Shown here piece by piece: positions 1 through 27,330 of a DNA stretch of 64,000 nucleotides. Made by a program: the position numbers and the translations under genes. The first letter of the stretch is position 1, and every line of letters starts with the position of its first letter. The notes under the pieces were generated by a model. That model made no database searches and was not told the DNA's origin. It worked only from the letters and a program-made list of their open reading frames with translations. The DNA is taken from assembly GCF_041886205.1 (NCBI RefSeq), contig NZ_CP169029.1; one strand, 5' to 3'. The DNA is from Escherichia coli (lineage in GTDB: Bacteria; Pseudomonadota; Gammaproteobacteria; Enterobacterales; Enterobacteriaceae).

Positions 1-3000
1 TGCAGGCCGGGATGTGAGCAGTCAGGGTGCAGGTATCGCAGCGGAAGACAACATCACTGTCCGGGCCGGGCGCGACGTTAATCTGCTGGCGGAAGAGTCC
101 GTGACCGGCAGCAGTTCATACTCGAAAAAGAAAACGGTCATTGATGAAACCGTTCGCCAGCAGGGAACGGAAATCGCCAGCGGTGGTGACACCACCATTA
201 CTGCAGGACGGGATATCACCGCTGTTGCGTCATCCGTTACCGCAACCGGCAATATCAGTGTGAATGCCGGTCGTGATGTCGCCCTGACCACGGCGACAGA
301 AAGTGACTATCACTATCTGGAAACGAAGAAAAAAAGCGGAGGTTTTCTCAGTAAGAAAACCACCCACACCATCAGTGAGAACAGTGCCACCCGTGAAGCA
401 GGCGCCCTGCTGTCGGGGAACCGCGTGACCGTTAACGCCGGTGATAACCTGACAGTACAGGGTTCGGATGTGGTGGCTGACCGGGATGTGTCACTGGCGG
501 CGGGTAACCATGTTGATGTTCTTGCTGCCACCAATACAGATACGTCCTGGCGCTTTAAGGAAACGAAGAAATCCGGTCTGATGGGTACCGGCGGTATTGG
601 TTTCACCATTGGCAGCAGTAAGACAACGCACGACCGCCGCGAGGCCGGGACAACGCAGAGTCAGAGTGCCAGCACCATCGGCTCCACTGCCGGTAATGTC
701 AGTATTACCGCGGGCAAACAGGCTCATATCAGCGGTTCGGATGTGATTGCGAACCGGGATATCCGCATTACCGGTGACAGTGTGGTGGTTGACCCGGGGC
801 ATGACCGTCGTACTGTGGACGAAAAATTTGAGCAGAAGAAAAGCGGGCTGACGGTTGCCCTTTCCGGCACAGTGGGCAGTGCCATCAATAATGCGGTTAC
901 CAGTGCACAGGAGACGAAGGAGAGCAGTGACAGCCGTCTGAAAGCCCTGCAGACCACAAAGACAGCGCTGTCTGGTGTGCAGGCCGGACAGGCTGCGGCA
1001 ATGGCCACCGCAACCGGTGACCCGAATGCGACGGGAGTCAGCCTGTCGCTCACCACCCAGAAATCGAAATCACAACAACATTCTGAAAGTGACACAGTAT
1101 CCGGCAGTACGCTGAATGCCGGGAATAATCTGTCTGTTGTCGCAACCGGCAAAAACAGGGGCGATAACCGCGGAGATATTGTGATTGCAGGAAGCCAGCT
1201 TAAGGCCGGTGGTAACACAAGCCTGGATGCCGCGAATGATATTCTGTTGAGTGGCGCTGCAAATACACAAAAAACAACGGGCAGGAACAGCAGCAGTGGC
1301 GGTGGCGTGGGTGTCAGTATCGGTGCCGGTGGTAACGGTGCCGGTATCAGTGTCTTTGCCAGCGTTAATGCGGCAAAAGGCAGCGAGAAAGGTAACGGTA
1401 CTGAGTGGACTGAAACCACAACAGACAGCGGTAAAACCGTCACCATCAACAGTGGTCGGGATACGGTACTGAACGGTGCTCAGGTCAACGGCAACAGGAT
1501 TATCGCCGATGTGGGCCACGACCTGCTGATAAGCAGCCAGCAGGACACCAGTAAGTACGACAGTAAACAGACCAGCGTGGCTGCCGGCGGCAGTTTTACC
1601 TTTGGCTCCATGACCGGCTCAGGTTACATCGCTGCCTCCCGGGATAAGATGAAGAGCCGCTTTGATTCCGTTGCTGAACAAACCGGAATGTTTGCCGGTG
1701 ACGGCGGCTTCGACATTACAGTGGGCAGACATACCCAACTGGATGGTGCGGTGATTGCCTCCACTGCCACACCGGATAAAAACCACCTGGATACCGGAAC
1801 GCTGGGGTTCAGTGACCTTCACAACGAAGCGGATTATAAAGTCAGTCACAGTGGAATCAGTCTGAGCGGTGGTGGCAGCTTCGGGGATAAATTTCAGGGT
1901 AACATGCCGGGTGGCATGATATCCGCCGGAGGTCACAGCGGACATGCGGAAGGAACGACTCAGGCCGCAGTGGCAGAAGGCACTATCACCATCCGGGACA
2001 GGGACAATCAGAAGCAGAATCTGGCGAACCTGAGCCGTGACCCTGCGCACGCTAATGACAGTATCAGCCCGATATTTGACAAGGAGAAAGAGCAGAGGCG
2101 TCTGCAGACAGTGGGGCTTATCAGTGACATAGGCAGTCAGGTGGCGGATATTGCGCGTACACAGGGAGAACTGAATGCGTTGAAGGCCGCGAAGGAAGCA
2201 ACCGGCGAAACACTTCCTGCTAATGCAACAGAGAAACAACGTCAGGAATATCTTGCGAAACTGCGTGACACGCAGGCTTACAGGAATGAAATGGCGAAGT
2301 ATGGCACTGGTAGTGAAATTCAGCGGGGTATCCAGGTCGCGATGGCAGCGCTTCAGGGCCTGGCGGGCGGCAATATGGCAGGCGCGCTGGCAGGTGCTTC
2401 AGCGCCGGAGCTGGCGAACATCATCGGTCATCACGCGGGTATTGATGACAATACAGCTGCAAAAGCCATTGCCCATGCCATTCTCGGTGGTGTGACAGCA
2501 GCCCTTCAGGGCAACAGTGCGGCAGCAGGCGCAATTGGCGCGGGTACTGGCGAAGTGATCGCGTCAGCCATTGCGAAAAGCCTCTACCCGGACGTAGATC
2601 CGTCGAAACTGACAGAAGAGCAGAAGCAAACTGTAAGCACGCTGGCAACGCTGTCAGCGGGTATGGCCGGCGGTATTGCCAGTGGCGATGTGGCTGGCGC
2701 GGCTGCTGGGGCTGGTGCCGGGAAGAACGTTGTTGAGAATAATTTACTTGGCGGTAGTGAAGATGCTCAGGCTGCGTGGATACGCCAGCATGGTATCGAC
2801 ATGGCGACATGTGCAGAAAACCCTTCCGGTGCCGCCTGCCAGAAAGCAATGAATGAGAGGGATGCTGTAGGGCTGGCTCTGGCAACAGGTACAGTGGCAC
2901 TACTCCCCGGTAGTGCTCAGGCTATGTGGGGACTGGGAGCAAGTGCGAATGCTGGTATCAGTTATCTGGCTGATGGTACTGTAGATCCGGCAAACGCAGC

Positions 3001-3406
3001 CATTGCAGGCTGGGTGAATGTGTTCAGCATGGGTAATGGCCTGGCGGGGACTGTGGGCTGGAATGCGGCAGGTGGTGCGCTGGGTAACTGGATCGACAAC
3101 AAAGATCCTCTGTCTGGTGCAATTTCAAATGGTATCGGTTCTGCTGCCGGGTATGGTATCGGTAAAGGTGTTACTTGGGGGACAGATAAGATTACGAATG
3201 CTGTAGGAAAATGGGTGACAAATGGCTGGGATCCTAAGTACGATCCAACATGGATAAAATATGCTGAAGTAAATCGTAACGATATCATTCGAGAAGGCAT
3301 GAAACCGAGCAATGTTCCTGGAACTGCTGGAGATATTGGCGGTTCTATAGGATCTGAGCTAGGTGGAAAAGTAACAGATAAAGTATCTGAGGAACTCAAG
3401 AAATGA
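1..3406 (+). CDS. cdiA: CdiA contact-dependent inhibition exoprotein, C-terminal part (5' partial, gene continues upstream of window)
   Basis: Frame open from window start; repeated AGRD/AGND hemagglutinin-type repeats; pretoxin region; VENN motif encoded at 2732-2743 followed by a ~220-aa glycine-rich C-terminal domain ending in a K-rich tail. Confidence 0.85.
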
Positions 3407-3660
3407 AATATTCTTCTCGAGTGGTAATAGGTAAGTTTATTATATGCAGTTCAATTCTCTTATTGTGTTTTATTGGCATGATCTTAGCGGCCATAATAAC
3501 TAAACTAACGTTTGTAGCGTTAGCATGGTTTCAAAGCGGGATTTTTGAAGTTTTGTGGAGCGATATTGTTTATGCTGCTCAGTTGGGTGGTCTGGGGGGG
3601 GGCATATTAGGTTTTTGTTGGGTTTTGTTATATCTTTTTAGGGCAAAGGGCTTTAGTTGA
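3403..3660 (+). CDS. cdiI: Putative CdiI immunity protein (85 aa, predicted membrane protein)
   Basis: Start overlaps cdiA stop (ATGA); small hydrophobic protein immediately after the toxin domain. Confidence 0.65.
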
Positions 3661-4564
3661 GAATAACTACCTCAGCTACGACGAGGCGCATGCTTTTGAC
3701 AGAGAAATGACGGCCTGTCGTAAAGCGGGTGGAGACTGTGGCGATATTCAGAATAAATATGCTGTATTAAGCGCAGAGAACCGACAGAAATTACACATTG
3801 ATGTGGCTGCAGATCCTCTTACGGCTCTGTCCGGGGAAGATAAATGGAATATTGAGGGCGGACTCAGCGCGGCGGGCCGACCTGGCTGGCTGTATGGTTC
3901 ACTGACTAATCAGGAGGTGAAGGATTACGTGACTGAAGGCAACAGCTACGACCTGAACTATCTGAACAGTAATACGTCGAAGGGTGACAGGGCTCTGGCT
4001 TTCTTCGGGGAACCGGAAAATTACTGGGGTACGGTTGCCGGAGCGGGTTCGTTGTTAACGTCATCAGCCACGCTGACTGAAAAATTTGTCAGTGCCGGGC
4101 TGAGCTATGGGGCTAATGGTGCGGTACAAATTGGTACGGGAAATATCGGTGATAAGTTCGATTATCTCAGTTTCATGATGTCAGGCTTGACTGGTGTAGG
4201 TACAGCCGGGAAAGGATATTACGCTAACCAGTTGTTGGGTGCTGGTAGTGCTTACATGAGCAGCCAGATTGAAGGCCAGGACAGTACCGCATCAGTAGTG
4301 GGTAGCATGGCTGGTACAGGCCTAGGATATAACGTTGGTGCTTCAATTACTAATAAGTTAGAAGCTCAATACATCAAAAATCAACTGGGAATGGACGCCA
4401 GTAAATATTCACTGCAATATTCGGAAAAGTCTATCGGATACGGTATGTATCAAGGCGGACAAATGAGTTCTATACCAGGAACATTTGGTGGATTTGTTGG
4501 TTCATTCGTATCAGAAGGTGCAAGCAGCGCAACGCAAAAAGAAGTTGATGGAGACAAAAAATGA
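3656..4564 (+). CDS. Orphan cdiA-CT module 1 (VENN remnant + glycine-rich toxin domain); internal ATG at 3707
   Basis: Frame begins with [11 protein letters not shown] directly after cdiI stop, with no upstream start; Gly-rich domain ending EVDGDKK like the main CT. Confidence 0.65.
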   Translation, partial: VENNYLSYDEAHAFDREMTACRKAGGDCGDIQNKYAVLSAENRQKLHIDVAADPLTALSGEDKWNIEGGLSAAGRPGWLYGSLTNQEVKDYVTEGNSYDLNYLNSNTSKGDRALAFFGEPENYWGTVAGAGSLLTSSATLTEKFVSAGLSYGANGAVQIGTGNIGDKFDYLSFMMSGLTGVGTAGKGYYANQLLGAGSAYMSSQIEGQDSTASVVGSMAGTGLGYNVGASITNKLEAQYIKNQLGMDASKYSLQYSEKSIGYGMYQGGQMSSIPGTFGGFVGSFVSEGASSATQKEVDGDKK

Positions 4565-4779
4565 AAAAATATCTACTACTTCTTATTAAGTTGTTACTTA
4601 TATCTATAGCTACTTGCTCTATTGGAATAGTGGTTAGTATCTGGCTTATAGCTCGGGAACCAATACCTTCTGAGGTGTATGTAAAATACGGAATAATTGG
4701 CGCAGTAGTTGGCTTATGGGGAGGTGCTGGGATTTGGTTACAACTCTATCTACAAATGCGAAGATACTATCGTAAATAG
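4561..4779 (+). CDS. Orphan cdiI 1 (72 aa membrane protein)
   Basis: ATGA overlap with preceding toxin module; strongly hydrophobic. Confidence 0.55.
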   Translation: MKKYLLLLIKLLLISIATCSIGIVVSIWLIAREPIPSEVYVKYGIIGAVVGLWGGAGIWLQLYLQMRRYYRK

Positions 4780-5429
4780 TTGTTGTTGAGAATAACTCAC
4801 TGGCGCATGTACTGGCAGCAGCGGAAGCGAACAAAGCAGGGACTGCAGAGAAATGGCAGGAAGAGCAGCAGGCTGCGATTAGAGAGGCGTGCAGTGGTGG
4901 TACGCCGGTTTCGTGTGAAACAGCAGTCGCAGCGATGGGAAGTGCAATGGTATGGCCGCTATTGCCAGGGGCGGCAGCCACTACAAGTCTGATAGGTGCA
5001 GGAGCGAATGCCGGCATCGGGTTACTGATTAACGGTGAAGTGAATCCAAATGATGTCATTCTTGGTTACTGGACGGGAGTCTTTACAGCAGGAACTAGGC
5101 TGTGGGGGACGATGGGTGTGAATGCGGCCAGCGGAGCCACATCCAGCTATCTAAAAGGTGATGATCCGCTGAAAGGTGGGGCAATGGGGGGAATGTCGTC
5201 AGGATTAGGATATGGTGCTGGCAAAGTTCTTCAGGGGCAACTCGATAAGTTCATTAATCCAAACTGGAAGAATTGGGAGTGGGTTGATGTTGGTATGGGC
5301 ATATCGAAGCCAATGCCATTAGATCCACTGCCTGGGGTTATCGGCAATATGGGAGGTTCTGCGTCTACAGAATACATCAACGATCGAATAGGAAAATCTT
5401 TGAGTGATAAATCAGGAGATAAGAAATGA
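4779..5429 (+). CDS. Orphan cdiA-CT module 2 (VVVENN + glycine-rich toxin domain); first ATG at 4935
   Basis: In-frame VENN codons at 4785-4796 with open frame through 5429; no start codon before 4935. Confidence 0.6.
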   Translation, partial: VVVENNSLAHVLAAAEANKAGTAEKWQEEQQAAIREACSGGTPVSCETAVAAMGSAMVWPLLPGAAATTSLIGAGANAGIGLLINGEVNPNDVILGYWTGVFTAGTRLWGTMGVNAASGATSSYLKGDDPLKGGAMGGMSSGLGYGAGKVLQGQLDKFINPNWKNWEWVDVGMGISKPMPLDPLPGVIGNMGGSASTEYINDRIGKSLSDKSGDKK

Positions 5430-5680
5430 GTTCTTCTGACCGCAAAAAGATCCTGATCCTTTTAATATGCATGGTGACTGGTAGTGCTGTTGGTGTTTTT
5501 ATAACCATACTATCTATGTCTTTATTAATAGATATATATCTATATATCGCAGAAGGTATAAGGTTAGACATGCATACATATAATCTTGAAAAACTTTTTA
5601 AAGTAAGTTCATTCTGTGGTTGTATAGGCGGCGGTGGCTGTTGGTTACTCTATTATCGAAATTATAGAAAAAATAAATAA
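5426..5680 (+). CDS. Orphan cdiI 2 (84 aa membrane protein)
   Basis: Overlapping start; hydrophobic segments. Confidence 0.55.
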   Translation: MSSSDRKKILILLICMVTGSAVGVFITILSMSLLIDIYLYIAEGIRLDMHTYNLEKLFKVSSFCGCIGGGGCWLLYYRNYRKNK

Positions 5681-5682
5681 TA

Positions 5683-5820
5683 GTTGAGAATAACTACCTC
5701 AGCTACGACGAGGCGCATGCTTTTGACAGAGAAATGACGGCCTGTCGTAAAGCGGGTGGAGACTGTGGCGATATTCAGAATAAATATGCTGTATTAAGCG
5801 CAGAGAACCGACAGAAATAG
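5683..5820 (+). pseudogene. Duplicated stub of orphan module 1 (VENN-proximal ~135 bp) ending in TAG
   Basis: 5684-5817 is a near-exact copy of 3658-3791, then TAG at 5818-5820, in the same frame as the following module. Confidence 0.6.
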
Positions 5821-7173
5821 GATATTGCCGGGCTCAGCCGGGACCCGGAAAACGCCAACGGCAGCATTGCACCGATATTTGACAGGGAGAAAGAGCAGAA
5901 GCGTCTTCAGGAAGCGCAGGTTATCAGCCAGATTAGCGGTCAGATGAGTAACATCGTCATGACGTATGGCGAAACTGAAGCGATGAAAGCAGCCAGGAAA
6001 GAGCATCCTGGCATGAGCGATGCACAGTTGCGGGAGACTCCGGAATACAGAGAGGTCATGAAAGGCTACGGTACGGGCAGTACGCCGCAGATGGTGGTAC
6101 AGGCCATCACAGGCGTGCTGGGCGGACTGAATGCAGGGAATCCGGGGCAGGTACTGGCTGGCGGTCTGAATCCGGCAGTGGCACAGCTTATAAAACAGGC
6201 CACCGGCGATAACCGGGAAGCAAACCTGATGGCTCACGCAGTCTGGGGAGCGCTTGCCGCACAACTGGGCGGAAACAATGCGGCTTCCGGTGCTGCAGGG
6301 GCATTCAGCGGTGAACTTGCAGCCCGGTATATCATTGATAACTACTACGGTGGTCGTACCGATAACCTGAGTGAACAGGAACGTCAGCAAATCAGCATGC
6401 TGGCCACCATTGCCTCAGGTATTGCGGGCGGGCTTGTCGGCAACAGTACAAGTGCTGCCGGTACGGGGGCACAGGCAGGCAGGAACTCGGTTGAGAATAA
6501 TGCGCTGAGTCTGGTTGCCAGAGGCTGTGCGGTCGCAGCACCTTGCAGGACTAAAGTTGCAGAGCAGTTGCTGGAAATCGGGGCGAAAGCGGGCATGGCC
6601 GGGCTTGCCGGGGCGGCAGTCAAGGATATGGCCGACAGGATGACCTCCGATGAACTGGAGCATCTGATTACCCTGCAAATGATGGGTAATGATGAGATCA
6701 CTACTAAGTATCTCAGTTCGTTGCATGATAAGTACGGTTCCGGGGCTGCCTCGAATCCGAATATCGGTAAAGATCTGACCGATGCGGAAAAAGTAGAACT
6801 GGGCGGTTCCGGCTCAGGAACCGGTACACCACCACCATCGGAAAATGATCCTAAGCAGCAAAATGAAAAACCTGTAGATAAGCTTAATCAGAAGCAAGAA
6901 AGTGCGATTAAGAAGATCGATAACACTATAAAAAATGCTCTGAAAGATCATGATATTATTGGAACTCTCAAGGATATGGATGGTAAGCCAGTTCCTAAAG
7001 AGAATGGAGGATATTGGGATCATATGCAGGAAATGCAAAATACGCTCAGAGGATTAAGAAATCATGCGGATACGTTGAAAAACGTCAACAATCCTGAAGC
7101 TCAGGCTGCGTATGGCAGAGCAACAGATGCTATTAATAAAATAGAATCAGCCTTGAAAGGATATGGAATATGA
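5821..7173 (+). CDS. Orphan cdiA pretoxin-VENN-CT module 3; toxin domain ends with GYGI
   Basis: ~220 codons homologous to the cdiA pretoxin region ([22 protein letters not shown]...), VENN at 6490-6501, C-terminal tetrapeptide GYGI at 7159-7170; first ATG at 5944. Confidence 0.7.
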
Positions 7174-7556
7174 TTACCTTACGTAAATTGATTGGAAACA
7201 TCAATATGACAAAAGAGCCTGAGCAACAATCACAGCTTGAACTCTGGTTCGAACGTATCATAGATGTGCCTCTTGAAAAGTTAACAGTGGAAGATCTTTG
7301 CCGCGCTATCCGACAAAATTTATGTATTGATCAGTTGATGCCAAGAGTGTTGGAAGTTCTAACTAAAGAGCCGTTAGCGGGTGAATATTACGATGGTGAA
7401 CTAATTGCAGCTTTATCAACGATAAAAGGAGAAGATCTAAAAGATCAGAAAAGTACCTTTACCCAAATAAGGCAACTTATAAACCAGCTAGAACCGTCAG
7501 ATATTAACGATGATTTAAGAAAAGATATATTAAAAATCAATCAGATAATTGTATAA
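7170..7556 (+). CDS. Orphan cdiI 3 (128 aa, soluble-type immunity protein)
   Basis: ATGA overlap with module 3 stop; non-hydrophobic protein. Confidence 0.55.
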
Positions 7557-7597
7557 CTAATCCCGGTCACTGAGCCGAGATCTTCTTTGTGTGCCGG

Positions 7598-9415
7598 GCA
7601 TGTTCAGCAGCTCGGGGGTGAAAGTCCCCTGTCCAGCCTGATGGTGGCGAAGGACTAGCGAAGCGCAAGGGCGTCGTCGTAAGGCGGGGTCTGAAGGAAG
7701 CGTGAAGCAAATCCATGACCTGACGAACAGAAATCCGATACGAGGCCTACCCGGTTGGCGGAGCAAGCAAAGAATTGCGAAGGCCATAACCATCAAGAAC
7801 CGGGGGGTAAATCGGACAGGTGTGTGGTGAAGGCGTCTGAACTTACCCCGGGAGGCCTGTCCGTCGTTCTGTATCTAGAACTTAGCGTACCGTAAGGGGC
7901 GCTGACCGGCGGACAGGAGTCAGCAGAGGGCATAGTAGGGCATGACACCCGAAGGCCCGAACGGTAATGAGTGACGAGTATCAACGGAGGTTCTGAACGG
8001 TCATGCAGCAGAAAACGCATCGCGCCCCTGAGGCCGGAGAACGGGGTGAAGCCCCGAACGCCGCCCTTCCGGGGGCTGAAACCGTGCAGGCACCGACGAA
8101 CAGAGAAAGTCCGTCGTCAACAGTGTGGCTGATGGAAGCCATTTGTGAACCAGTCAATCTCAGGCAAGCCCTGAAAAGAGTTAAAGCCAACAAAGGTGCA
8201 GCGGGAGTCGATGGTATGCGCGTAAGCGAACTGCCGGACTACCTGAGGCACCACTGGCCAGAGCTGAAAGCGCAACTACTGTCTGGCAGATACCGCCCAT
8301 CTCCTGTGAGAAGAGTGTCCATACCGAAGCCCGGCGGCGGCGAACGTCTGCTGGACATCCCGACGGTGGTGGATCGCTTCATCCAGCAGGCGATGATGCA
8401 GGTATTGCAGGGGCACTGTGGGATAGCTCGTTCAGCGATAACAGCTACGGGTTCCGTCCCGGTCGTTCGGCCCACCAGGCAGTGATACAGGCCCGGGAAC
8501 ATATCGGGGCCGGGTATCACTGGGTGGTCGACCTCGATCTGGAGAAGTTCTTCGACCGGGTAAATCACGATGTGCTGATGAGCCGGATAGAGAAACGAGT
8601 ATCGGATAAACGGGTGTTGTCACTTATCCGCAGGTTCATGAATGCAGGGGTGATGGACGCAGGTCTGGTAAGGCCGGTGACAGAAGGAACGCCGCAGGGC
8701 GGCCCACTGTCGCCGCTGCTATCGAACCTGCTGCTTGACGACCTCGACAAGGAACTGGAGAAACGTGGTCTGAAGTTCGTGCGGTACGCAGACGACTGTA
8801 ATGTCTACGTGAAAAGCGAACGGGCAGACAACCGGATCATGGCGGGGTTGACGCACTGGCTGAGCCATAAACTGAAGCTGAAGGTCAACGCGAAGAAGAG
8901 TGCTGTAGCACGCCCTGAAACGCGCAAGTTCCCTGGATACAGCTTCATAAGGGGGCGGAAGGTATGGTGCGTGGTATCGCCGGAGTCGATAAAACGGTTC
9001 AAAATGCGGATAAGAGCACTGACCGGACGCAACACAGGGAGAAGCCTTGAACAGCTAACCCGGTTGCTAAAACGATATCTGACGGGCTGGAAAAGTTACT
9101 ACGGGCTGAACCAGAGGCCATCGCTGATGCGAGAGCTGAACGGATGGATAAGGCGCAGTCGAGGCGTAAGCAAGGACCTTGCGGCGCAAACAGCAGGAAG
9201 CTGCCATAAAGAGTGGCGGATAAGCTGTAGTCCGGCACTGAATATAGCACTCCCCAATAATCTGTTCTCCAGACTGGGCCTGCCAGAAGTATAGGCAGGC
9301 GACGATCAACATAACCGAACCGCCGTATACGGCCCCATACGTACGGTGGTGTGGGAGGAAGCTGATCGTGAGATCAGCTCCTATCCCGATTTAACCGTCA
9401 GTCTCCCCCAAAATG
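7598..9415 (+). mobile_element. Group II intron (boundaries approximate)
   Basis: GUGUG-type 5' start near 7598, structured GC-rich RNA domains, internal RT/maturase ORF, domain V-like hairpin near 9320-9360. Confidence 0.65.
8003..9294 (+). pseudogene. Group II intron reverse transcriptase/maturase, frameshifted near 8420-8430
   Basis: RT motifs (SYGFRPGRSAHQA, YADD) split between ORF 8003-8485 and ORF 8482-9294; the correct frame switches between ...QVLQ and LWDSSFSDNSYGF. Confidence 0.75.
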
Positions 9416-9442
9416 CCCGTCCTGGCGCTTGTACACTGGCAT

Positions 9443-9535
9443 ATTGGCATGATCTTAGCGGCCATCATAGCTAAACTAACGTTTGTAGCGTTAACATGGT
9501 TTCAAAGCGGGATTTTTTAAGTTTTGTGGAATGAT
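9443..9535 (+). pseudogene. Decayed fragment homologous to cdiI (copy of ~3473-3565)
   Basis: About 90 bp at ~93% identity to the internal part of cdiI at 3403-3660, with a stop-creating substitution. Confidence 0.6.
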
Positions 9536-9735
9536 GCGTATTTTCATGAAAGGAGATCACTCAATAACTTCCATCGAGATCGGGTAATAACATTGTAAGC
9601 TTCCGGGGAACTCATATTGACGCGTTTTTCAGGCGCGCGTCATCGGCGGCGCATACGAACGATCGTGGTCTGATAACGGTTGATTTATTTTGTTGCACAG
9701 GGGCGATCGCCAGGCAGGTACCGGAGGCGGGCTCT

Positions 9736-9817
9736 GAAGTACTGAGTAGGGTGATCGCGTCAGGCCGCGAAGTACTGACTCGGGGATTAATGGCAGGTGA
9801 TGATGTACTGACCCGGG
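9736..9817. repeat. Three direct repeats GAWGTACTGA-N3-GGG spaced exactly 33 bp apart
   Basis: Copies begin at 9736, 9769 and 9802. Confidence 0.5.
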
Positions 9818-9956
9818 AATGACTCCGGGCTGATTCAGGTTCTTATTCGCTGTCAGCCCGTGTGGTTGCTGGTCTGGCTCATTTCCTGTCGTCAGGAGTT
9901 CAACTCCCGACTGCAGGTTATGGCCCGGTGCACGAACACCTGACGGCAGGTATCAC

Positions 9957-11444
9957 TCACCCGGAGAAGGTAAATCCCTCAAGAGGCAGCAACTCTGCCA
10001 GTCGCTCCTCCGGCCACTCCGGCAGACGCATCAGGACGTCTGTCAGCCAGGCATGCGGCTCCAGACCGTTGCGTTTCGCGGTTTCCAGCAAGCTCATTAT
10101 TTGCGCGGCGCGTTCTCCTGCCATCTGCGAACCGGCGAACAGCCACGATTTTCTGCCCAGGACCACGTTTTTGATGGCCCGTTCACACACATTATTATCC
10201 AGCGGCACCGCACCATCTTCCAGGAAGCGGCTTAGTTCCACGCGATGAGACAGCGCATAGACAATGGCTTTGTGTAATGCCCTTCCCGGAGAACATTGCG
10301 GTTCCTGCTCTTCAAGCCATGACCACAGATCTTCCAGTATCGGACGGGCATAACGCTGTCGCCACTGGCGGATTTTTTCCACGGGGCGGCTACTGATCTT
10401 CTTCTCAAGACGGTACAACCCCGCGATTTTCTTCACGGCGATGGCAGCCCGTGGATCTTTACTGATTTTATACAGGTCGGCGAAGCCCCTGCGGGCATGG
10501 GACCAGCATCCGGCCAGCGTGATCTCCGGCACTTTGTTTGCCAGAGTCCGGTAAGCTTTATGTCCGTCGACAACCAGCGTCCCGCCCCAGCCCTGAAGCC
10601 AGTTTTCAGGATACTCATGGCTACGTCCGGTCCGGCAGTTGAAGCACACAACTGACGGTCCCGTCCTTTCTCCACTGACGTATGCCCACAGATAACCGGA
10701 GCAGGATTTACCGCCTTTCTTCGTGTTCAGGAGCTTCAGGGTAGTCTCATCTGCATGCACCACCGGACGGTTTATCAACTCGCGATGGAGTAACGCCGCC
10801 AGGGGAGATAATGCGGCACCCGCCGCGCCAACCATGTCAGCCATCGAACTGACGGGAAGCCCGACATCTGAACGGGCAAAGACCTGTTGCTGGCGATACA
10901 GAGGCAGGTGGTCACCGTATTTATTGATGATCACCTGTGCGATGACTGATGGCTCAACGGCACTTTTCGGGAGGATATGTGCCGGCATTTCACCGCTGAA
11001 CACCTTCTGGCAACAGGGACAACTGTATTGCGGACGGACATAACAGTTCACCACGAAGTGAGCGGGAATATACTCCAGCTTTTCACTCACCGCATCACGG
11101 ATATAGTGCAGCGGCTCGTCACATTCAGGGCAATGGTCAGTGTCCGGCTGGATAATTTTTTCCACCCGTGGAAGATGAGCCGGTAAGGATTTGCGTATCG
11201 GGCGTGAACGGGACGCTTTTTCGTCTTCTTCAGGGGATTGCGGGAGCAGTTTATCCAGATGTGCGGTAAGCGCGGCGATATCGACATCAACATCCTCTTC
11301 GAACAGGGAGCGTTGCATACCAGCCAGCGTTTCACATTTTTTACCGAAGCGCTGTTGACGAACCAGTTTCAGCATTTCTTCCAGAAGCTGGATGCGCCGG
11401 CTTTTCTCCAGTAATTCCCGCTCTTTTTCGGCATTCTCCGACAT
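9957..11444 (-). CDS. tnpC: IS66-family transposase TnpC
   Basis: 495 aa; motifs [17 protein letters not shown], zinc-finger cysteines. Confidence 0.85.
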   Translation of the reverse strand: MSENAEKERELLEKSRRIQLLEEMLKLVRQQRFGKKCETLAGMQRSLFEEDVDVDIAALTAHLDKLLPQSPEEDEKASRSRPIRKSLPAHLPRVEKIIQPDTDHCPECDEPLHYIRDAVSEKLEYIPAHFVVNCYVRPQYSCPCCQKVFSGEMPAHILPKSAVEPSVIAQVIINKYGDHLPLYRQQQVFARSDVGLPVSSMADMVGAAGAALSPLAALLHRELINRPVVHADETTLKLLNTKKGGKSCSGYLWAYVSGERTGPSVVCFNCRTGRSHEYPENWLQGWGGTLVVDGHKAYRTLANKVPEITLAGCWSHARRGFADLYKISKDPRAAIAVKKIAGLYRLEKKISSRPVEKIRQWRQRYARPILEDLWSWLEEQEPQCSPGRALHKAIVYALSHRVELSRFLEDGAVPLDNNVCERAIKNVVLGRKSWLFAGSQMAGERAAQIMSLLETAKRNGLEPHAWLTDVLMRLPEWPEERLAELLPLEGFTFSG

Positions 11445-11564
11445 GACTTTTTATACCATGGCAAGTGCCATGGCACGCAGTTTTTCGATGTCATTCGTGG
11501 TGTTGAGAGCGGAGATGTCCATACAGGGGAGCATACCACTCCGGATACGGATATTAATTATTTT

Positions 11565-11957
11565 TCAATTAGTTAGCAGTGTATTTTGCGTGTTTTCAGG
11601 GCGCAGTTCAGGTTCATTCTGCCAGACCCATTTCGTCAGGTCATGTCCCTTAACCTGCTGCCAGTCAACACCGGCAATCAGCCAGTTAAACTCGTCGGGA
11701 GTGAGGTGCCAGGCAGCATCATTTGCACATGGCCAGCGGAAGCTGCCTTTGTGCAGACGGCGGGTACACAACCACACCCCGTGTTTATCCCACCGGAGAA
11801 CTTTGATACGCGAACGGGCTTTGTTAACAAAGACGAAGGCGGCTCCCCCATGCCATATCGACCGGAGTTCATCCTGTATATACTGCGTCAGTGCGTCGAT
11901 GCCCCGGCGCATGTCAACAGGTTTAATTGCGATGAAGACATTATCAGGACTGAGCAT
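11565..11957 (-). CDS. tnpB: IS66-family Orf2 (TnpB)
   Basis: Aligns with TnpB of the second IS66 copy (VLWADSDGLCLF / VLRWDKHGVWLC); start chosen at the internal Met. Confidence 0.75.
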   Translation of the reverse strand: MLSPDNVFIAIKPVDMRRGIDALTQYIQDELRSIWHGGAAFVFVNKARSRIKVLRWDKHGVWLCTRRLHKGSFRWPCANDAAWHLTPDEFNWLIAGVDWQQVKGHDLTKWVWQNEPELRPENTQNTLLTN

Positions 11958-12273
11958 ATTTGAGCGCCCTGAAGACATCGGTAAGTTGTGACGGCTGACA
12001 GCACATCCGTACTCCACCGGGAAGGAGGAGCGTGACTGGCTCATTCGTGACGGGCTGTGGTACATCAGCATGCAGTGGTGGCGCAATATGAACGGGAAGA
12101 ACGGTCGGTTCATTTGCCCGGCGTTCAGCTTTTGCGACATCCTGCGGCCATTCGCGAAGTGATGTGAAGGGAATATCGTTGAGTTCACAGTATTGCTGAC
12201 GTGTAAGACCACTGGCGCGCCAGGCAGCACGTTGCTGCCTTTTCTGTTCAATGGTCCATCGGGGTTTTGACAT
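11944..12273 (-). CDS. tnpA: IS66-family Orf1 (TnpA)
   Basis: 109 aa, immediately upstream of and overlapping tnpB. Confidence 0.7.
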   Translation of the reverse strand: MSKPRWTIEQKRQQRAAWRASGLTRQQYCELNDIPFTSLREWPQDVAKAERRANEPTVLPVHIAPPLHADVPQPVTNEPVTLLLPGGVRMCCQPSQLTDVFRALKYAQS

Positions 12274-12276
12274 TGA

Positions 12277-13413
12277 TTATCTCCGGTAAGTTGGTGAATG
12301 AATGTCGGTAATGCTAACTGACTGAAAATCTCTGTGAAGATGACTTCCCCGTAACGACACCTTCTTTATCGCCTGCCGAATGACGCTGTTCAGCGATTCG
12401 ATGGCATTCGTCGTGTAGATGGCCTTGCGGATATCCGGTGGGTAACCGAAGAAGGTGTTGAGATTTTCCCAGTGTGTGCGCCAGCTCTTGCTGATTTGCG
12501 GGTATTTTTTATCCCAGACGCCTGCAAACTTATCCAACGCCATCAACGCAGCTTCCTCTGTCGGGGCCTGATATACCGCTTTCAGCCCGCTGGTGACGGC
12601 TTTGTAATCCTTCCACGACACGAATTTCAGGCTGTTGCGCACCATATGGATGATGCAGAGCTGAATATGCGTCTGCGGGTATACGCTATTTATCGCTTCC
12701 GGGAAGCCTTTCAGGCCGTCCACGCAGGCAATCAGGATGTCCTGAAGGCCACGATTTTTCAGCTCAGTCAGTACACCCAGCCAGAACTTTGCACCTTCAT
12801 TTTCTGCCAGCCACATACCCAGCAGCTCTTTCTGACCGTCGGTATTGATGCCCAGCGCGAGGAACACCGCTTTGTTAATGACACTCCCGCCGTGACGAAC
12901 CTTAACCACAATACAGTCAAGATAAACAATGGGATACAGTGCATCCAACGGTCGGTTTTGCCATTCAGAGACCTGTTCTTTAACCGCATCGGTCACTTTG
13001 GATATCAGCGTGGGCGAGACATCGGCGTCGTACATTTCTTTGAACGTGGCAACGATTTCCCGCGTAGTCATGCCTTTGGCATACAGGGACAAAATCTGGC
13101 TGTCCATCTGGGTGATGCGTGTCTGATGCTTCTTAATTAGTTGCGGTTCGAAGGTATTTTCACGGTCACGCGGCGTGTTAAGTTCGATCTCGCCATCATC
13201 GCACAATACCGTTTTTGACGAGTAGCCATTACGGGTATTAGAGCCTGATTTAGGAGCATTTTTCTCATGACCGAGATGGTCAGTCAGTTCTGCATTGAGC
13301 GCCGTTTCGACGGTAAGCTTTGTCAACATGCGTGAAAACTGGTTGAGGTCGGCTTCGGTTTTAAGGCCTTTGGCCAGTTCAGCCGCAAGAGCTTTAAGTT
13401 TCTTTTCGTCCAT
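12277..13413 (-). CDS. IS256-family transposase, C-terminus apparently replaced at the junction with IS66 element 1
   Basis: 378 aa with IS256-type transposase features (MULE/DDE region); C-terminal 27 residues look non-native. Confidence 0.65.
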   Translation of the reverse strand: MDEKKLKALAAELAKGLKTEADLNQFSRMLTKLTVETALNAELTDHLGHEKNAPKSGSNTRNGYSSKTVLCDDGEIELNTPRDRENTFEPQLIKKHQTRITQMDSQILSLYAKGMTTREIVATFKEMYDADVSPTLISKVTDAVKEQVSEWQNRPLDALYPIVYLDCIVVKVRHGGSVINKAVFLALGINTDGQKELLGMWLAENEGAKFWLGVLTELKNRGLQDILIACVDGLKGFPEAINSVYPQTHIQLCIIHMVRNSLKFVSWKDYKAVTSGLKAVYQAPTEEAALMALDKFAGVWDKKYPQISKSWRTHWENLNTFFGYPPDIRKAIYTTNAIESLNSVIRQAIKKVSLRGSHLHRDFQSVSITDIHSPTYRR

Positions 13414-18331: not shown

Positions 18332-19903
18332 ATGGACACCTCACTTGCTCATGAGAACGCCCGCCTGCGGGCACTGTTGCAGACGCAACAGGACACCATC
18401 CGCCAGATGGCTGAATACAACCGCCTGCTCTCACAGCGGGTGGCGGCTTATGCTTCCGAAATCAACCGGCTGAAGGCGCTGGTTGCGAAACTGCAACGTA
18501 TGCAGTTCGGTAAAAGCTCAGAAAAACTTCGTGCAAAAACCGAACGGCAGATACAGGAAGCACAGGAGCGAATCAGCGCACTTCAGGAAGAAATGGCGGA
18601 AACGCTGGGTGAGCAATATGACCCGGTACTGCCATCCGCCCTGCGCCAGTCTTCAGCCCGTAAACCGTTACCGGCCTCACTTCCCCGTGAAACCCGGGTT
18701 ATCCGGCCGGAAGAGGAATGCTGTCCTGCCTGTGGTGGTGAACTCAGTTCTCTGGGATGTGATGTGTCAGAGCAACTGGAGCTTATCAGCAGCGCCTTTA
18801 AGGTTATCGAAACACAACGTCCGAAACAGGCCTGTTGCCGGTGCGACCATATCGTGCAGGCACCAGTACCTTCAAAACCCATTGCACGCAGTTATGCCGG
18901 AGCGGGGCTTCTGGCCCATGTTGTCACCGGGAAATATGCAGACCATCTGCCGTTATACCGCCAGTCAGAAATATACCGTCGTCAGGGAGTGGAGCTGAGC
19001 CGTGCCACACTGGGGCGCTGGACAGGTGCTGTTGCTGAACTGCTGGAGCCGCTGTATGACGTCCTGCGCCAGTATGTGCTGATGCCCGGTAAAGTCCATG
19101 CTGATGATATCCCCGTCCCGGTCCAGGAGCCGGGCAGCGGTAAAACCCGGACAGCCCGGCTGTGGGTCTACGTCCGTGATGACCGTAACGCCGGTTCACA
19201 GATGCCCCCGGCGGTCTGGTTCGCGTACAGTCCGGACCGGAAAGGTATCCATCCACAAAATCACCTGGCCGGTTACAGCGGTGTGCTTCAGGCCGATGCT
19301 TACGGTGGTTACCGGGCGTTATACGAATCCGGCAGAATAACGGAAGCCGCGTGTATGGCTCATGCCCGGAGAAAAATCCACGATGTGCATGCAAGAGCGT
19401 CCACCTACATCACCACGGAAGCCCTGCAGCGTATCGGTGAACTGTATGCCATCGAGGCAGAGGTCCGGGGCTGTTCAGCAGAACAGCGTCTGGCGGCAAG
19501 AAAAGCCAGAGCCGCGCCACTGATGCAGTCACTGTATGACTGGATACAGCAACAGATGAAAACACTGTCGCGTCACTCAGATACGGCAAAAGCGTTCGCA
19601 TACCTGCTGAAACAGTGGGATGCACTGAACGTGTACTGCAGTAATGGCTGGGTGGAAATCGACAACAACATCGCAGAGAACGCCTTACGGGGAGTGGCCG
19701 TAGGCCGGAAAAACTGGATGTTCGCGGGTTCCGACAGCGGTGGTGAACATGCGGCGGTGTTGTACTCGCTGATCGGCACATGCCGTCTGAACAATGTGGA
19801 GCCAGAAAAGTGGCTGCGTTACGTCATTGAACATATCCAGGACTGGCCGGCAAACCGGGTACGCGATCTGTTGCCCTGGAAAGTTGATCTGAGCTCTCAG
19901 TAA
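18332..19903 (+). CDS. tnpC: IS66-family transposase TnpC
   Basis: 523 aa; leucine-zipper N-terminus, zinc-finger cysteines, [20 protein letters not shown]. Confidence 0.9.
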
Positions 19904-19906
19904 ATA

Positions 19907-21382
19907 TCAATACGGTTCTGACGAGTCGCTTACTTTTGTGCTGTCGCCAAAATCACTAATCCCTCTCACAATAAGCGCTGGAACTCCCTGCTTTTCGCAG
20001 GCATCAAATACCCCATAGGCTTCCATTTCGGCAACACAGGCTTTGTCATGAAGCGACCTGAAACGTTCTAGTAAAGCAGGATCGCGGATAAGAAGCTCTC
20101 CTGATGCGATAGTGGCTGAAGAAACAATTATCCCAGCAGCTACGTCTCCAGCCTGCGAATTTTCAGGCATTTCGAGTCCTATAGCCTGTGCCCGTTCGCC
20201 AAGACGTGCGGATAGTGACGTTGTTGCAAGGTAAGTATTGAGGTTTTGTTTAGTTGGCATATGGAGACATAATATTTCAGGTCGAGGAGCAAACTTCCCA
20301 CCTTCTAATGCGGCTGCACTTTCATAATAAATGACACGCTCAGAAATAATGACTTCACCTAGCACCATTTTTTCTCTCAACCCCGCCGCAATCCCCATCA
20401 TCAAGACTTTTTGGGGTTTGAATTCCGACAACAACATGGTAGTAATAGCTGAAGCATTCACATTTCCAGCACTAGCGAAAGACGCCACTATGCCAGTTAC
20501 TGGGCCATCTGAGCGTTGTATGGATGTGGACCAGAAATGTATTCCATTTGATGTGAGCCGCGGAGATTCATCATCAGCTATGCCAAATACTTTCTTGGCT
20601 GCAGCAAGTTCAACTGGTAGAGCTGTCAAAATCAACACATTTGGAGTATGCAGCAACTGTTGTGCAGCCCATTCAGCTTTAAGCAATTCAACTGCGATTT
20701 CTGAAAGTCGTTCCAGTCCATAGTAAGGTTCCTGTAACGATAAAGTGTCGAGCTGATTTTTTACGGCTTCACCGGTGCAAGGGAACATAGACAGCGGCTC
20801 TGCATAAAAACGTGCATGTAGGCCTAAAGCACCTTTTCCGTCATCGCAAATTCCCCCAAGCTCCAAGTCAAACGGTAATATGGGGTGGTTGGCTTTACGC
20901 ATTTTACTCGCACGATCGGAAACGCCTTTTCCTCCACCTAATGCAATCATGGCTGTGGCAGCATCAACCTGCTCGCTTCCAATATTTCCTCCAGTAATGA
21001 GATCATCATCTAGATAGCTGACATCAGCAAATCTAGCTGCCTGAAGTTTACGAATAAGCATCCGATTCTCTTCAGACATTTTCTCCCGCATTGCAGAACG
21101 CGACGTGACGATCTTGAGTTGGTGGGCTGGCGTATAATTCTCCATTAAATCTACAGCTTCTTTTACTATCGTCCAGTCGAAGGTCAGGAGATCCCCATTT
21201 TCATTAACAGGTTCTCCTGCCAAATAGACAACTAGTCCCACATTTGCATCAAGGATGCTCTTCGTCAATGCTCGAACGAAACTATGTGCTCGATCAATAT
21301 AAAGTTTTTCTGTATTTTTGGATATACTTCCAGCGATCAGAACATACTCATTATTAGTATTTGTCATCACAATTCTTCCCAA
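19907..21382 (-). CDS. Two-domain protein: N-terminal Rossmann-like domain with GGGKG motif (possible ligand sensor) + C-terminal PNP/MTA-nucleosidase-family domain; 3' end interrupted by IS66 element 2
   Basis: C-terminal half has nucleosidase-like motifs (VAEMEAYGV, RGISDFGD); last 8 codons and stop are IS-encoded (VSDSSEPY*). Confidence 0.6.
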   Translation of the reverse strand: MGRIVMTNTNNEYVLIAGSISKNTEKLYIDRAHSFVRALTKSILDANVGLVVYLAGEPVNENGDLLTFDWTIVKEAVDLMENYTPAHQLKIVTSRSAMREKMSEENRMLIRKLQAARFADVSYLDDDLITGGNIGSEQVDAATAMIALGGGKGVSDRASKMRKANHPILPFDLELGGICDDGKGALGLHARFYAEPLSMFPCTGEAVKNQLDTLSLQEPYYGLERLSEIAVELLKAEWAAQQLLHTPNVLILTALPVELAAAKKVFGIADDESPRLTSNGIHFWSTSIQRSDGPVTGIVASFASAGNVNASAITTMLLSEFKPQKVLMMGIAAGLREKMVLGEVIISERVIYYESAAALEGGKFAPRPEILCLHMPTKQNLNTYLATTSLSARLGERAQAIGLEMPENSQAGDVAAGIIVSSATIASGELLIRDPALLERFRSLHDKACVAEMEAYGVFDACEKQGVPALIVRGISDFGDSTKVSDSSEPY

Positions 21383-21396
21383 AGGAGTATTACTTG

Positions 21397-22296
21397 TTAC
21401 TGTTTAAGTAAGGCATAGATTTCATCCTTGTTTTTTAATGCTAACTGTAATGCTTCCGGCGCCTGATGTGACTGAGTCTCTGTAAGATTTAACTGGAAAA
21501 GAAGGTAGTGCAGCAAAGCTTGTCGGCATTCCAGATGGATTTCTCCGTCGATCATTGCATAATCTCTCTCAATAAGGTTTCGTTGAGCAAGGCATAGTCC
21601 AGGATGCGCTATAAGAATAATTTTGATGAATGTATTCCACGCTAAATCACCATTAGCCCTCTCTTCATCGGGTCCGGCGTTTTGTGCCTGCACTATTCGC
21701 GACAATAAAAAGTCCCTATATTCACCACGTTTATGACACCATGCTCTTGTGTGCCAGCGATAACCATCATGGACTAATGAATGAGGAGTCAAGGTTCGTT
21801 TACTGCCTTGAGGGTCACTCATGGATTGATAAATAACATGAACAGCCTCATTTTCACGTATAGCTCGTAATATTTGACTTACGACATCAGTGTCCAGTCT
21901 ACGTAACAGTCGTGGAACCGCTGCAACGGGTGAGCGCCAGCCCAGAAAGCTTCCAAAATGAATTTCAGGTTGTATTGCCACTCGCAGCAAATCATTCAGA
22001 TAACATTCCAGAGAGCTGGTCATATAAACTGGCTGAAACAATTTCGTTGAACGGTAAACTCGGGAACTCATATCGTACTCAAGATTATCGGGGGCTAACT
22101 TAGTATATTCACTAAGATCCAGCGAAGCTTGAGGTACTGATATGCCGAAAAAATCAGTGAGGCTGCTACGATTGATTTGCCCATCCCATCGAAGTCGATA
22201 ATCAATAAATTCAAGCCGACGCTCTTGGCCCCATCTCGCACCTTGCCGTCCTTTTTGGCTGTCTTGCTTATCCCCTTCTCTAAAGTTATCTGGCAT
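21397..22296 (-). CDS. WYL-domain transcriptional regulator (CapW/BrxR-like)
   Basis: 299 aa; N-terminal wHTH, central WYL-type motif (HDGYRWHTRAWCHKRGEYRDFLLSRI); divergent from the nucleotidyltransferase operon. Confidence 0.65.
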   Translation of the reverse strand: MPDNFREGDKQDSQKGRQGARWGQERRLEFIDYRLRWDGQINRSSLTDFFGISVPQASLDLSEYTKLAPDNLEYDMSSRVYRSTKLFQPVYMTSSLECYLNDLLRVAIQPEIHFGSFLGWRSPVAAVPRLLRRLDTDVVSQILRAIRENEAVHVIYQSMSDPQGSKRTLTPHSLVHDGYRWHTRAWCHKRGEYRDFLLSRIVQAQNAGPDEERANGDLAWNTFIKIILIAHPGLCLAQRNLIERDYAMIDGEIHLECRQALLHYLLFQLNLTETQSHQAPEALQLALKNKDEIYALLKQ

Positions 22297-22394
22297 CTTA
22301 GTTCCCGGTAGCGTATAAAAAATATCTCAATATAAAAAGTAGACGCAGAATAAAAACTGAACGTATAATAATGCTACGCTATAGGGCGGTAAGG

Positions 22395-22434
22395 TGCAAC
22401 CATCACCTCAGTCACTTCTGAGGTGATGGTTGCA
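22395..22434. promoter_or_regulatory. Perfect 17-bp inverted repeat (TGCAACCATCACCTCAG - 6 bp - CTGAGGTGATGGTTGCA) in the divergent intergenic region; candidate operator or 5'-leader hairpin
   Basis: Lies between a -10-like TATAAT (~22363) and the RBS/start at 22466. Confidence 0.5.
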
Positions 22435-22465
22435 GTTTTCATGAATGATCTTCGGAAGGATGTGA

Positions 22466-23410
22466 ATGCCACTCACTAATACTCAGATCCGATACTACGA
22501 CAGCAATGTACTGCGTTTGCCTAAGGATAAGCGTGAAACCTACAATGCCCAAGTAGATCGGCTTATTACAGCGTTACGTAAAAAACTGAAAGATCAGGAT
22601 AAAATAACAATAAAACGTGTCGTTAAAGCTGGTTCGTTTGCTAAACACACTATTCTACGCAAAACCTCAGACAGTCAGGTCGATGTGGATGTTGTGTTTT
22701 ACGTTAGTGGAGAGAAAGTTGCTGAGGAAACCTTCGCAAGCCTGAGCGAAAAAATTTACGAAGCCTTACTTAAAATGTATCCCAACAAAGCTGTAGAAGA
22801 TTTCGAGATTCAACGTAAGGCTGCTACTGTTTCTTTTGTCGGGACTGGATTAGATGTTGATATTGTTCCCGTCATCGAAAATCCGGACAAAGAAGGCTAT
22901 GGATGGCAGTTTGACCGTATCGATGGTTCGAAGACAGAGACTTGTGCTCCTTGCCAGATCAAATTTGTGAAAGATCGCAAAGACCAAGACCCGGACTTTC
23001 GTACTTTAGTACGCTTAGCTAAACGTTGGCGTACCAACATGGAATGCCCACTTAAGTCATTTCATATAGAACTAATCATGGCTCATGTACTAGAAGTCAA
23101 TGGAAAAGATGGTTCGTTGGAGAAGCGATTTCGGGATTTTCTACTGTACATTGCTGAATCAGGATTAAAAGAAGTTATCACCTTCCCTGAAAATAGCACT
23201 ATACCAGCATTTTCCCATCCAGTTGTCATACTGGATCCTGTTTGCGATACGAACAACGTTACCAGCCGTATTACCGAGGATGAGCGAAAAGAGATCGTCC
23301 GGATTGCTGAGGAAAGTTGGGCGACGGCAAATTTTGCGTCGGTAGAAGGAGACTATGATATCTGGAAGGAGCTGTTTGGTCGTTCATTTAAAGTGGAGGA
23401 TACAGCATGA
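22466..23410 (+). CDS. cGAS/DncV-like nucleotidyltransferase (CD-NTase-like)
   Basis: 314 aa; GS-x9-S-x5-DVD nucleotidyltransferase motif, third acidic residue in LDVDIVPV; RBS GGAAGGA upstream. Confidence 0.65.
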   Translation: MPLTNTQIRYYDSNVLRLPKDKRETYNAQVDRLITALRKKLKDQDKITIKRVVKAGSFAKHTILRKTSDSQVDVDVVFYVSGEKVAEETFASLSEKIYEALLKMYPNKAVEDFEIQRKAATVSFVGTGLDVDIVPVIENPDKEGYGWQFDRIDGSKTETCAPCQIKFVKDRKDQDPDFRTLVRLAKRWRTNMECPLKSFHIELIMAHVLEVNGKDGSLEKRFRDFLLYIAESGLKEVITFPENSTIPAFSHPVVILDPVCDTNNVTSRITEDERKEIVRIAEESWATANFASVEGDYDIWKELFGRSFKVEDTA

Positions 23411-23895
23411 GTTACTCCTCAACTGAAACATCGACTTATACCACAACAGACGTTGAAGCAGTCATGCGACGCATCACAGCTGACTTAGTGATGATTGCCG
23501 CCAGTACCGGTGCGATAACTGAATCAAAAGCACGTGAGTATGCTCACGATATAGAACTCTTAGCAAAAAATGGATATCTGGATTACGTCGATGTGACCCT
23601 TATAAGCAATGGCGTTGAACAGAAAGCAACCCGGTTTCATGTGAATGAGTCCGGAGAATTGGCAAATGACAGACCTGGAGACGCTCGTTGGCCGAGAATT
23701 CAGGGGGCTTATCTGCGGATTGTTGTGAACAACCGGAGTACCTACGATCAGGCTGCGAGGCAAAAGCTTTCAGGTAAGATGAAAATATCGTGGTCGCCAT
23801 GTAGTGATGACATCAGTCATTCAGGTTTGACCCAAAGTGGTGGTCGTGAATATTCCAGCAATGGTTATGGTATGCAACGTAAGGATTACAATTAA
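23407..23895 (+). CDS. Small protein (162 aa), possibly HORMA-like (Cap7-type); assignment from position and size only
   Basis: Translationally coupled (ATGA overlap) between the nucleotidyltransferase and the AAA+ ATPase. Confidence 0.35.
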   Translation: MSYSSTETSTYTTTDVEAVMRRITADLVMIAASTGAITESKAREYAHDIELLAKNGYLDYVDVTLISNGVEQKATRFHVNESGELANDRPGDARWPRIQGAYLRIVVNNRSTYDQAARQKLSGKMKISWSPCSDDISHSGLTQSGGREYSSNGYGMQRKDYN

Positions 23896-24791: not shown

Positions 24792-24848
24792 GGCCCCATT
24801 TCTTAATCAACTGATATACTATAAAAATCAACTCCAATTCCGGTACAT

Positions 24849-25451: not shown

Positions 25452-25538
25452 GTTGCGCAAATAATCATATGGAATTTTCAAAGATTAATTTACTGGAAGT
25501 ACAGTGAATTACCTTATGACAAGAGTTCTGGTGGATAT

Positions 25539-25994: not shown

Positions 25995-26067
25995 TACATT
26001 TGAGCCGGCCCCTTGAAACGCCAGACAGTGGATGTATCTTAAAATAAGAGATAGGCTTGGATATATG

Positions 26068-26424: not shown

Positions 26425-26459
26425 CGCATGCGCCCTTGTTGCCAACGGACAAGGAATAA

Positions 26460-27225: not shown

Positions 27226-27330
27226 CATCCTCATGGTGCCTTGGTTATCTCTCACCGAGGGAATATCAACGTCACTCGGTAACGTTAACTTAAGCTCAAC
27301 GGCTGTCTGGATATAGTGGTTCAAGGGCAC

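Follow-up and report, generated by a model that had tools for sequence, protein, structure and literature searches.

Background

Among the described CDI systems, one close to the locus considered here is the ionophore class, whose immunity proteins have 72-100 residues, are very hydrophobic, form two-helix hairpins and are encoded directly after a CdiA-CT with GxxxGxxxG (PMC11630599). Orphan genes disrupted by IS elements or transposons, as well as fragments without a partner, were already reported by Poole et al. 2011 (PMC3150448). In addition, a symE-family gene inside CDI clusters has been noted for Proteus mirabilis BL95 and E. coli M19 (PMC11278526).

We analysed a stretch of 64,000 nucleotides of E. 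coli DNA, hereafter the window, in which a short segment related to cdiI lies downstream of a group II intron. We conclude that this segment is very probably a non-functional cdiI remnant, cut on its right by ISEc12, joined on its left to a symE end by a deletion, and decayed in situ. IS decay of orphan cdi modules having been described, the relic is nothing new in kind. The features that bear on its history are collected in Table 1.

Table 1. Features of the window around the cdiI relic and of the gene to which it was compared.
Feature	Coordinates	Strand	Basis or remark
Main cdiI (predicted), intact, 85 codons	3403..3660	+	Reference copy; ORF overlaps cdiA stop by 4 nt
cdiI of 536-type tRNase orphan module, 128 codons	7170..7556	+	Pfam CdiI_3 E=2e-28; RefSeq cdiI in EC11, ZYB39
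Terminator spacer, weakened GATCCCGG...CCGGGATC-type hairpin and T-run	7557..7588	.	Intron 5' flank; shared with convergent symE
Group II intron, 1802 nt	7589..9390	+	Rfam group-II-D1D4-3 (130 bits), D1D4-1; plasmid relatives
symE-family gene 3' end	9391..9441	-	Last 13 codons (...PVYKRQDGHFGGD), stop 9398-9400, 7 nt trailer
cdiI relic	9442..9534	+	Codons 24-54 of 85; six substitutions; matches 3471-3563
ISEc12 (IS21 family) left-end stub, first 60 nt, remainder missing	9535..9594	+	60/60 identical to intact copies
IS66-family element (tnpA, tnpB, tnpC)	9595..12360	-	RefSeq annotation of identical ZYB39 region; same block in RM8082

A relic of a different cdiI allele

A repeat search of the window aligned 9442-9535 with 3471-3564 over 94 nt, ungapped and at 94% identity. 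Compared in register, 88 of the 94 positions are identical, the longest exact run being 24 nt, which bears out an earlier note on this DNA that had reported about 90 bp at about 93% identity to the middle of the main cdiI. The six substitutions (9466, 9470, 9494, 9518, 9531 and 9532) comprise one synonymous change, T33A, A41T, S53N (two bases) and a GAA>TAA change that places a premature stop at codon 49. With 31 of the 85 codons left and a stop within them, the segment is, as the same note had it, the decayed fragment of a second cdiI-type gene.

Both edges of the match are sharp: outside the relic, identity in the same register is random (14/68 upstream and 18/96 downstream). When 9420-9560 was compared with the whole window using blastn, the cdiI pair was recovered with E=4e-37, the next best match had E=1, and the sequence was found not to be of low complexity. 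This E-value together with the sharp edges rules out a chance or low-complexity match. Base 9535 is both the last matched base and base 1 of ISEc12, the cdiI-derived part being the 93 nt from 9442 to 9534. Its identity to the homologous genes of Leclercia and Enterobacter is 80-88%. Judged by these alignments, 9442-9534 is a relic of a different allele of the 85-aa cdiI family of the window's main module.

The parent gene and its family

The cdiA ORF located before the main cdiI encodes 1130 aa, and its CT carries GxxxGxxxG motifs. The 85-aa product of the main cdiI is hydrophobic over most of its length, with two hydrophobic segments; sources annotate it as hypothetical and neither Pfam nor NCBIfam holds a model for it. 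The prediction of 3403-3660 as a cdiI rests on its position, on its hydrophobicity and on the type of toxin that precedes it, and all three match the published description of the ionophore class (PMC11630599). The RefSeq accessions of ZYB39 and the peptide strings of the window's cdiI and CT are absent from the supplementary files of that study (Halvorsen 2024), and no experimental immunity test was found for the 85-aa family.

Homologues of 84 or 85 aa in Leclercia and Enterobacter likewise follow, with a 4-nt overlap, a CdiA with TPS, Fil_haemagg_2 and PT-VENN domains, and they are found as main or orphan modules. Both 3403-3660 and its homologues in other genera are positioned directly after a cdiA-CT. 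The relic is homologous to a gene in this position; upstream of the relic itself lies a symE 3' end and no cdiA-CT. Reduced to codons 24-54 with a TAA at 49, it encodes no complete two-helix product of 72-100 residues. Nor does it belong to an orphan module made of a VENN/CT cdiA fragment and a cdiI: once the intron is removed, 7557-9441 consists of the terminator and the symE end, with nothing cdiA-like.

Two further observations concern the main module. The main cdiI contains a run of nine G (3592-3600), where the orphan copy of Nissle 1917 (locus L006, about 8124-8133) has ten and is shifted in frame; the CT of this orphan also holds a stop. Variants of the protein in the databases differ in their Gly count at this site and have 84, 85 or 87 aa, and the G tract appears prone to slippage. 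Moreover, the junction past the main cdiI with the start of orphan 1 (3654-3800) has a 97% repeat behind the third small immunity ORF (5681-5827), and the repeat then enters the pre-toxin region of the 536-type orphan (2009-2143 versus 5812-5946). These repeats are the footprint of recombination between modules.

The right edge coincides with the terminus of ISEc12

The 60 nt that follow the relic start with TG, as the ISEc12 terminus does. A search of 5426 complete E. coli genomes located them at 5051 places in 1702 genomes, most of these matches beginning at the base that corresponds to 9535. At the three places inspected, each an intact ISEc12 copy, the left flanks were unrelated to one another and istA started about 130 nt further on. 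In the window the match halts at 9594, and neither istA/istB nor the right end is present; comparison with the left end through istB of the fetched copies gave no other ISEc12 match in the window. Since the cdiI homology ends at the very base where ISEc12 begins, between codons 54 and 55, this exact-terminus junction is the signature of an IS insertion and shows that ISEc12 was joined to a cdiI at that point. The earlier note had attributed the loss of the gene to the intron or to neighbouring IS elements; the second part of this proposal thus stands for the right edge.

Searching the 5426 E. coli genomes with a chimeric query revealed no intact ISEc12 at the relic junction, the slightly longer upstream matches being chance extensions.

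The stub is bounded at 9594 by the terminal repeat of the IS66-family element. This element, whose tnpC lies at 9957-11444 on the minus strand, has terminal inverted repeats that are imperfect, lacks a target duplication and adjoins, at 12361, a truncated ISEc39. Where it meets ISEc12, a rearrangement rather than a simple insertion may have taken place. The missing target duplication and the truncated ISEc39 next door imply at least one further rearrangement afterwards. An ISEc39 common to the window and Nissle 1917 was considered as a sign of inversion and rejected, the flanks being different.

In EC11, a miniature element of 58 nt (locus L001, 7713-7770) lies inside the IS66-family element, between tnpB and tnpC. 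It consists only of the left and right termini of ISEc12 (TGCGTATTTTCATG...GGTAATACGCA), flanked by a GTATAC duplication, and looks like a MITE-like ISEc12 derivative. The window's IS66 copy does not carry it (about 11536).

The left edge joins a symE end to codon 24

The left flank of the relic could be identified only after joining both flanks of the intron and searching plasmids. Once joined, 7557-7588 and 9391-9441 form one unit, made of the terminator hairpin that follows the 536-type cdiI, the last intact cdi gene ahead of the relic, and of the end of a symE gene. The joined sequence matches the plasmids pCCO1 of Cronobacter condimenti and pCDU1 of C. dublinensis across the join, at 77-80% and inside cdi orphan arrays. 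On these plasmids, a strong GATCCCGG...CCGGGATC hairpin with its T-run directly follows an immunity-like ORF and precedes the end of a decayed gene on the opposite strand. The peptide of this decayed gene gave 130 protein matches, of which most of those named by their source are SymE-family proteins, many with PF08845. The terminator/symE unit also occurs in cdi orphan arrays of Enterobacter and E. coli, and the same hairpin stands between symE and cdiI in E. coli OW968441 (locus L027). The window's hairpin folds at -6.4 kcal/mol and the aligned Cronobacter hairpins at -19 to -23 kcal/mol.

On the minus strand, 9439-9401 reads PVYKRQDGHFGGD, with its stop at 9400-9398. A SymE tblastn placed its best match in the window at 9391-9441 (E=0.004), and the stretch is assigned to symE for its 77-80% nucleotide identity, along about 70-88 nt, with Cronobacter pseudogenes whose longer peptide matches SymE-family proteins. 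Only 13 C-terminal codons are kept, downstream of the SymE toxin domain (PF08845), which is missing. In an alignment with the Cronobacter, E. coli and Enterobacter loci, the window tracks symE to ...CTTGTACACTGGCA and switches to cdiI at 9442. At the junction 9441/9442, symE thus breaks off 13 codons before its stop and is joined to codon 24 of cdiI, with no IS end at that point. We also considered 9391-9441 as an IS end, which was rejected as nothing was retrieved by blastn-short against the window and E. coli genomes nor by two exact-match scans of 100,044 species genomes. In E. coli genomes, 9391-9441 was unmatched outside this arrangement.

The group II intron entered a terminator

The introns of plasmids pE1246_1 and pDEC15A-1, 87-88% identical to that of the window, both match exactly 7589-9390, which fixes its bounds. 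Its D1-D4 domains score above the Rfam gathering thresholds at 7673-7957; no Rfam model of domain V/VI reached its gathering score. The reverse-transcriptase ORF is split in two overlapping frames (8003-8485 and 8482-9294), the pieces being annotated separately by RefSeq in EC11 and ZYB39, and relatives are annotated as ltrA. Ribozyme domains and an intron-encoded reverse transcriptase are thus both present. The intron has probably lost the ability to move unaided.

Insertion just behind a terminator hairpin is habitual for bacterial class C introns. In the window, the intron comes after the hairpin and T-run, and its 87% relative on a plasmid likewise follows a terminator hairpin, GCCCGTGGGGGCTTTTTTAT. 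The flanks form a continuous terminator and symE unit that is seen uninterrupted elsewhere, although only on the Cronobacter plasmids. By this comparison the intron is shown to have entered an intergenic terminator; it interrupted no cdiA-CT/cdiI module and touches no cdiI-derived DNA. The relic does start just past the 3' end of the intron, 51 nt after 9390, as had been noted. However, these 51 nt are symE sequence, not cdiI, and together with the contiguity of the flanks in Cronobacter they rule out the intron as the cause of truncation. The impression that the relic lies far from any toxin module is likewise only an effect of the 1.8-kb intron: with the intron removed, the relic is found 83 nt past the 536-type cdiI.

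In 40 records sampled out of 295 matching E. coli records, the 3' end of the 536-type cdiI was never found without the start of the intron, and every record with this cdiI end kept at least the first 65 nt of the intron. For this reason the insertion seems older than most present-day copies of the 536-type module.

Pieces of the intron occur in other arrangements. The first 65 nt of the intron come after the 536-type cdiI in about 200 complete genomes, with a truncated IS66-family transposase next; for instance, 7001-7174 of SF-173 (locus L008) corresponds to 7480-7653 of the window. In many genomes, a 45-nt piece identical to 9348-9392 (the last 43 nt of the intron and 2 nt of flank) is found beside an acyltransferase gene, as in WCHEC040047 (locus L024, 1501-1545), and is probably the scar of another intron copy.

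Distribution of the relic among genomes

The whole islet 9385-9600 was found in 13 complete E. coli genomes. The cdiI-like core alone has matches in 270 genomes; most are intact or decaying copies, of which the Nissle 1917 orphan is an example. All recovered copies of the relic (EC11, ZYB39, B771, RM8082 and six metagenome contigs) are 100% identical. One exact-match metagenome scan gave no intact gene with the relic's allele and only six further copies of the same scar, and no genome was seen in an intermediate state of the relic's decay.

EC11, whose chromosome record holds one matching place only, and several metagenome contigs carry a cdiA that runs straight into the 536-type CT, with cdiI, the intron and the islet behind it. 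These loci lack the three ionophore modules that the window has at about 2762-6489, and EC11-type loci keep only 67 nt of the IS66 element ahead of an arc/argF cluster. Its presence, at 100% identity, in loci without the main ionophore module makes the relic independent of the main cdiI of the window. A recent duplication or gene conversion from the main cdiI, followed by decay, might be suggested by the two copies lying 5971 nt apart on the same strand of the same locus. It is extremely unlikely, as the EC11-type loci contradict it. Moreover, the relic has diverged by 6.4%, against 2% between the window's module and the Nissle 1917 copy, and its copies are identical to one another and to no intact gene.

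Two genomes hold the relic away from cdi genes. In RM8082, the block 9473-12360 lies between ghoST and the dnd genes with different DNA on both sides, in a fetched stretch of 16 kb without cdi genes; only the last 62 nt of the relic are left, cut at 9473 by another IS66-family end. In B771, the islet is present from 9407/9422 to 9661, an IS1 remnant stands in place of all the DNA to the left of about 9407-9422, and no cdi genes were found in the 6 kb fetched upstream. These two cases imply that the relic can travel with its IS neighbours, so that an origin in situ is not proven. They are also compatible, as is the IS66 element without target duplication, with the destruction of the cdiI elsewhere and the arrival of the relic as DNA flanking the ISEc12 stub and IS66, by IS-mediated recombination or transposition. 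No extra module would then ever have stood downstream of the 536-type cdiI here. We regard such an import as improbable, since all copies in which the relic has its greatest length, starting at 9442, adjoin the terminator/symE unit of a cdi locus, and since the RM8082 and B771 versions, which are shorter and cut by an IS66-family end or an IS1 remnant, look derived. Furthermore, arrays with orphan modules beyond symE exist, and decay in situ, our preferred reading, needs nothing unusual.

Proposed history of the locus

For decay in situ, the ancestral locus would have had the layout cdiBA(CT-536), cdiI, terminator, symE on the opposite strand, then orphan modules including an ionophore cdiA-CT/cdiI pair. 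A layout of this type is intact in E. coli OW968441, where ionophore-type orphans lie beyond symE; symE is likewise convergent in the cdi arrays of Enterobacter, and a symE-containing layout has been noted for P. mirabilis BL95 (PMC11278526). ISEc12 would have struck the cdiI of one orphan module and IS66 activity would have stripped most of ISEc12. Through a deletion, symE would have lost its 5' part, the orphan module its toxin and cdiI its codons 1-23, leaving the symE end fused to codon 24. At some point of this series, the intron would have entered the terminator. Three ionophore modules would later have been gained upstream in the window's lineage, with CT-536 pushed to an orphan position; by coincidence, this gain would have set an intact, 94%-similar cdiI 6 kb from the relic. 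The relic would thus show that the lineage once carried another allele of the immunity family now used in its main module.

The relic is most likely dead DNA without function, because it keeps 31 of 85 codons with an internal stop and has no Shine-Dalgarno or promoter-like site. We could detect no promoter-like site in 9250-9950 and no Shine-Dalgarno-like sequence before the in-frame ATG at 9413. This ATG opens an ORF (9413-9520) of 35 aa in which MPVLALVHWH is fused to cdiI residues 24-48, and the sequence is invariant in all copies. On these grounds one might imagine a single-helix membrane peptide with partial immunity or regulatory function, or a patch serving as a homology anchor for recombination. 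We give these ideas almost no credence: invariance fits the recent common descent of one scar, no such expression signals precede the ATG, and the second hydrophobic segment is missing while the ionophore immunity proteins are two-helix hairpins (PMC11630599). As for an anchor, the relic shares no exact run of more than 24 nt with the main gene, and recombination between the copies would destroy the main cdiI.

symE stubs and other features of the window

In single cdi arrays, several orphan modules are followed by the C-terminal stub of a symE-family gene, always opposite to the array strand. Such stubs were located near 1321, 3195, 6047, 6853 and 8881 in C. condimenti pCCO1 (locus L025), near 861, 4363 and 6034 in C. 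dublinensis pCDU1 (locus L026), that is three to five stubs per Cronobacter array, and at 9391-9441 in the window. Intact symE genes are convergent inside an E. coli array (locus L027, 8001-8354) and stand at the ends of Enterobacter arrays (loci L016 and L017). The stubs look like buried former locus ends. It is conceivable, if rather doubtful, that the relic, the symE stub and the terminator form one layer in a record of cdi array growth, in which former ends were buried by new modules. Should this hold generally, symE stubs would serve to date and order module acquisitions, and symE would indicate where enterobacterial cdi loci originally ended downstream.

On the far side of the IS cluster, the window at about 19900-26200 corresponds to 23664-29808 of ZYB39 (locus L009), whose annotation lists a nucleosidase, a WYL-domain protein, a CBASS oligonucleotide cyclase, an ATP-binding protein and a 3'-5' exonuclease. 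These genes suggest that a defence island adjoins the cdi locus. Rfam also detected an ALIL pseudoknot (an IS3-type frameshift signal), a tRNA gene and two naRNA4 copies (34694-34810, 44527-44599 on the minus strand, and 56432-56589).

Comparison with known systems

Our results bear first on annotation. The 93 nt are best described as a cdiI pseudogene fragment, the preceding 51 nt as the end of a symE pseudogene and the following 60 nt as an ISEc12 stub; the intron is to be described as a terminator insertion, not as a gene disruption.

The parent gene family fits the CdiI of the CDI ionophore class (Halvorsen et al. 2024, PMC11630599) in length, hydrophobicity, gene order and predicted toxin type, but the relic is unable to form a two-helix hairpin. 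As in the CDI clusters that contain symE (PMC11278526), where symE is convergent to cdiI with a terminator between them, the joined flanks of the intron rebuild the same unit; the window differs in that symE is down to its last 13 codons, which are fused to the cdiI relic. The right edge, with the left terminus of ISEc12 as the border of the relic and a stub that ends at an IS66 repeat, shows the usual layering of nested ISEc12 and IS66-family insertions at the margins of IS-rich islands, although here only 60 nt of ISEc12 are left and the IS66 element lacks a target duplication. Finally, like the orphan modules of Poole et al. 2011 (PMC3150448), the relic lies in a cdi orphan region, on the array strand and among transposable elements. 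The remnants described in that paper are disrupted cdiA-CT fragments, whereas in the window the surviving stub is that of the immunity gene. The relic is thereby one more case of the tail of a cdi locus acting as a graveyard of toxin/immunity modules broken by mobile elements.
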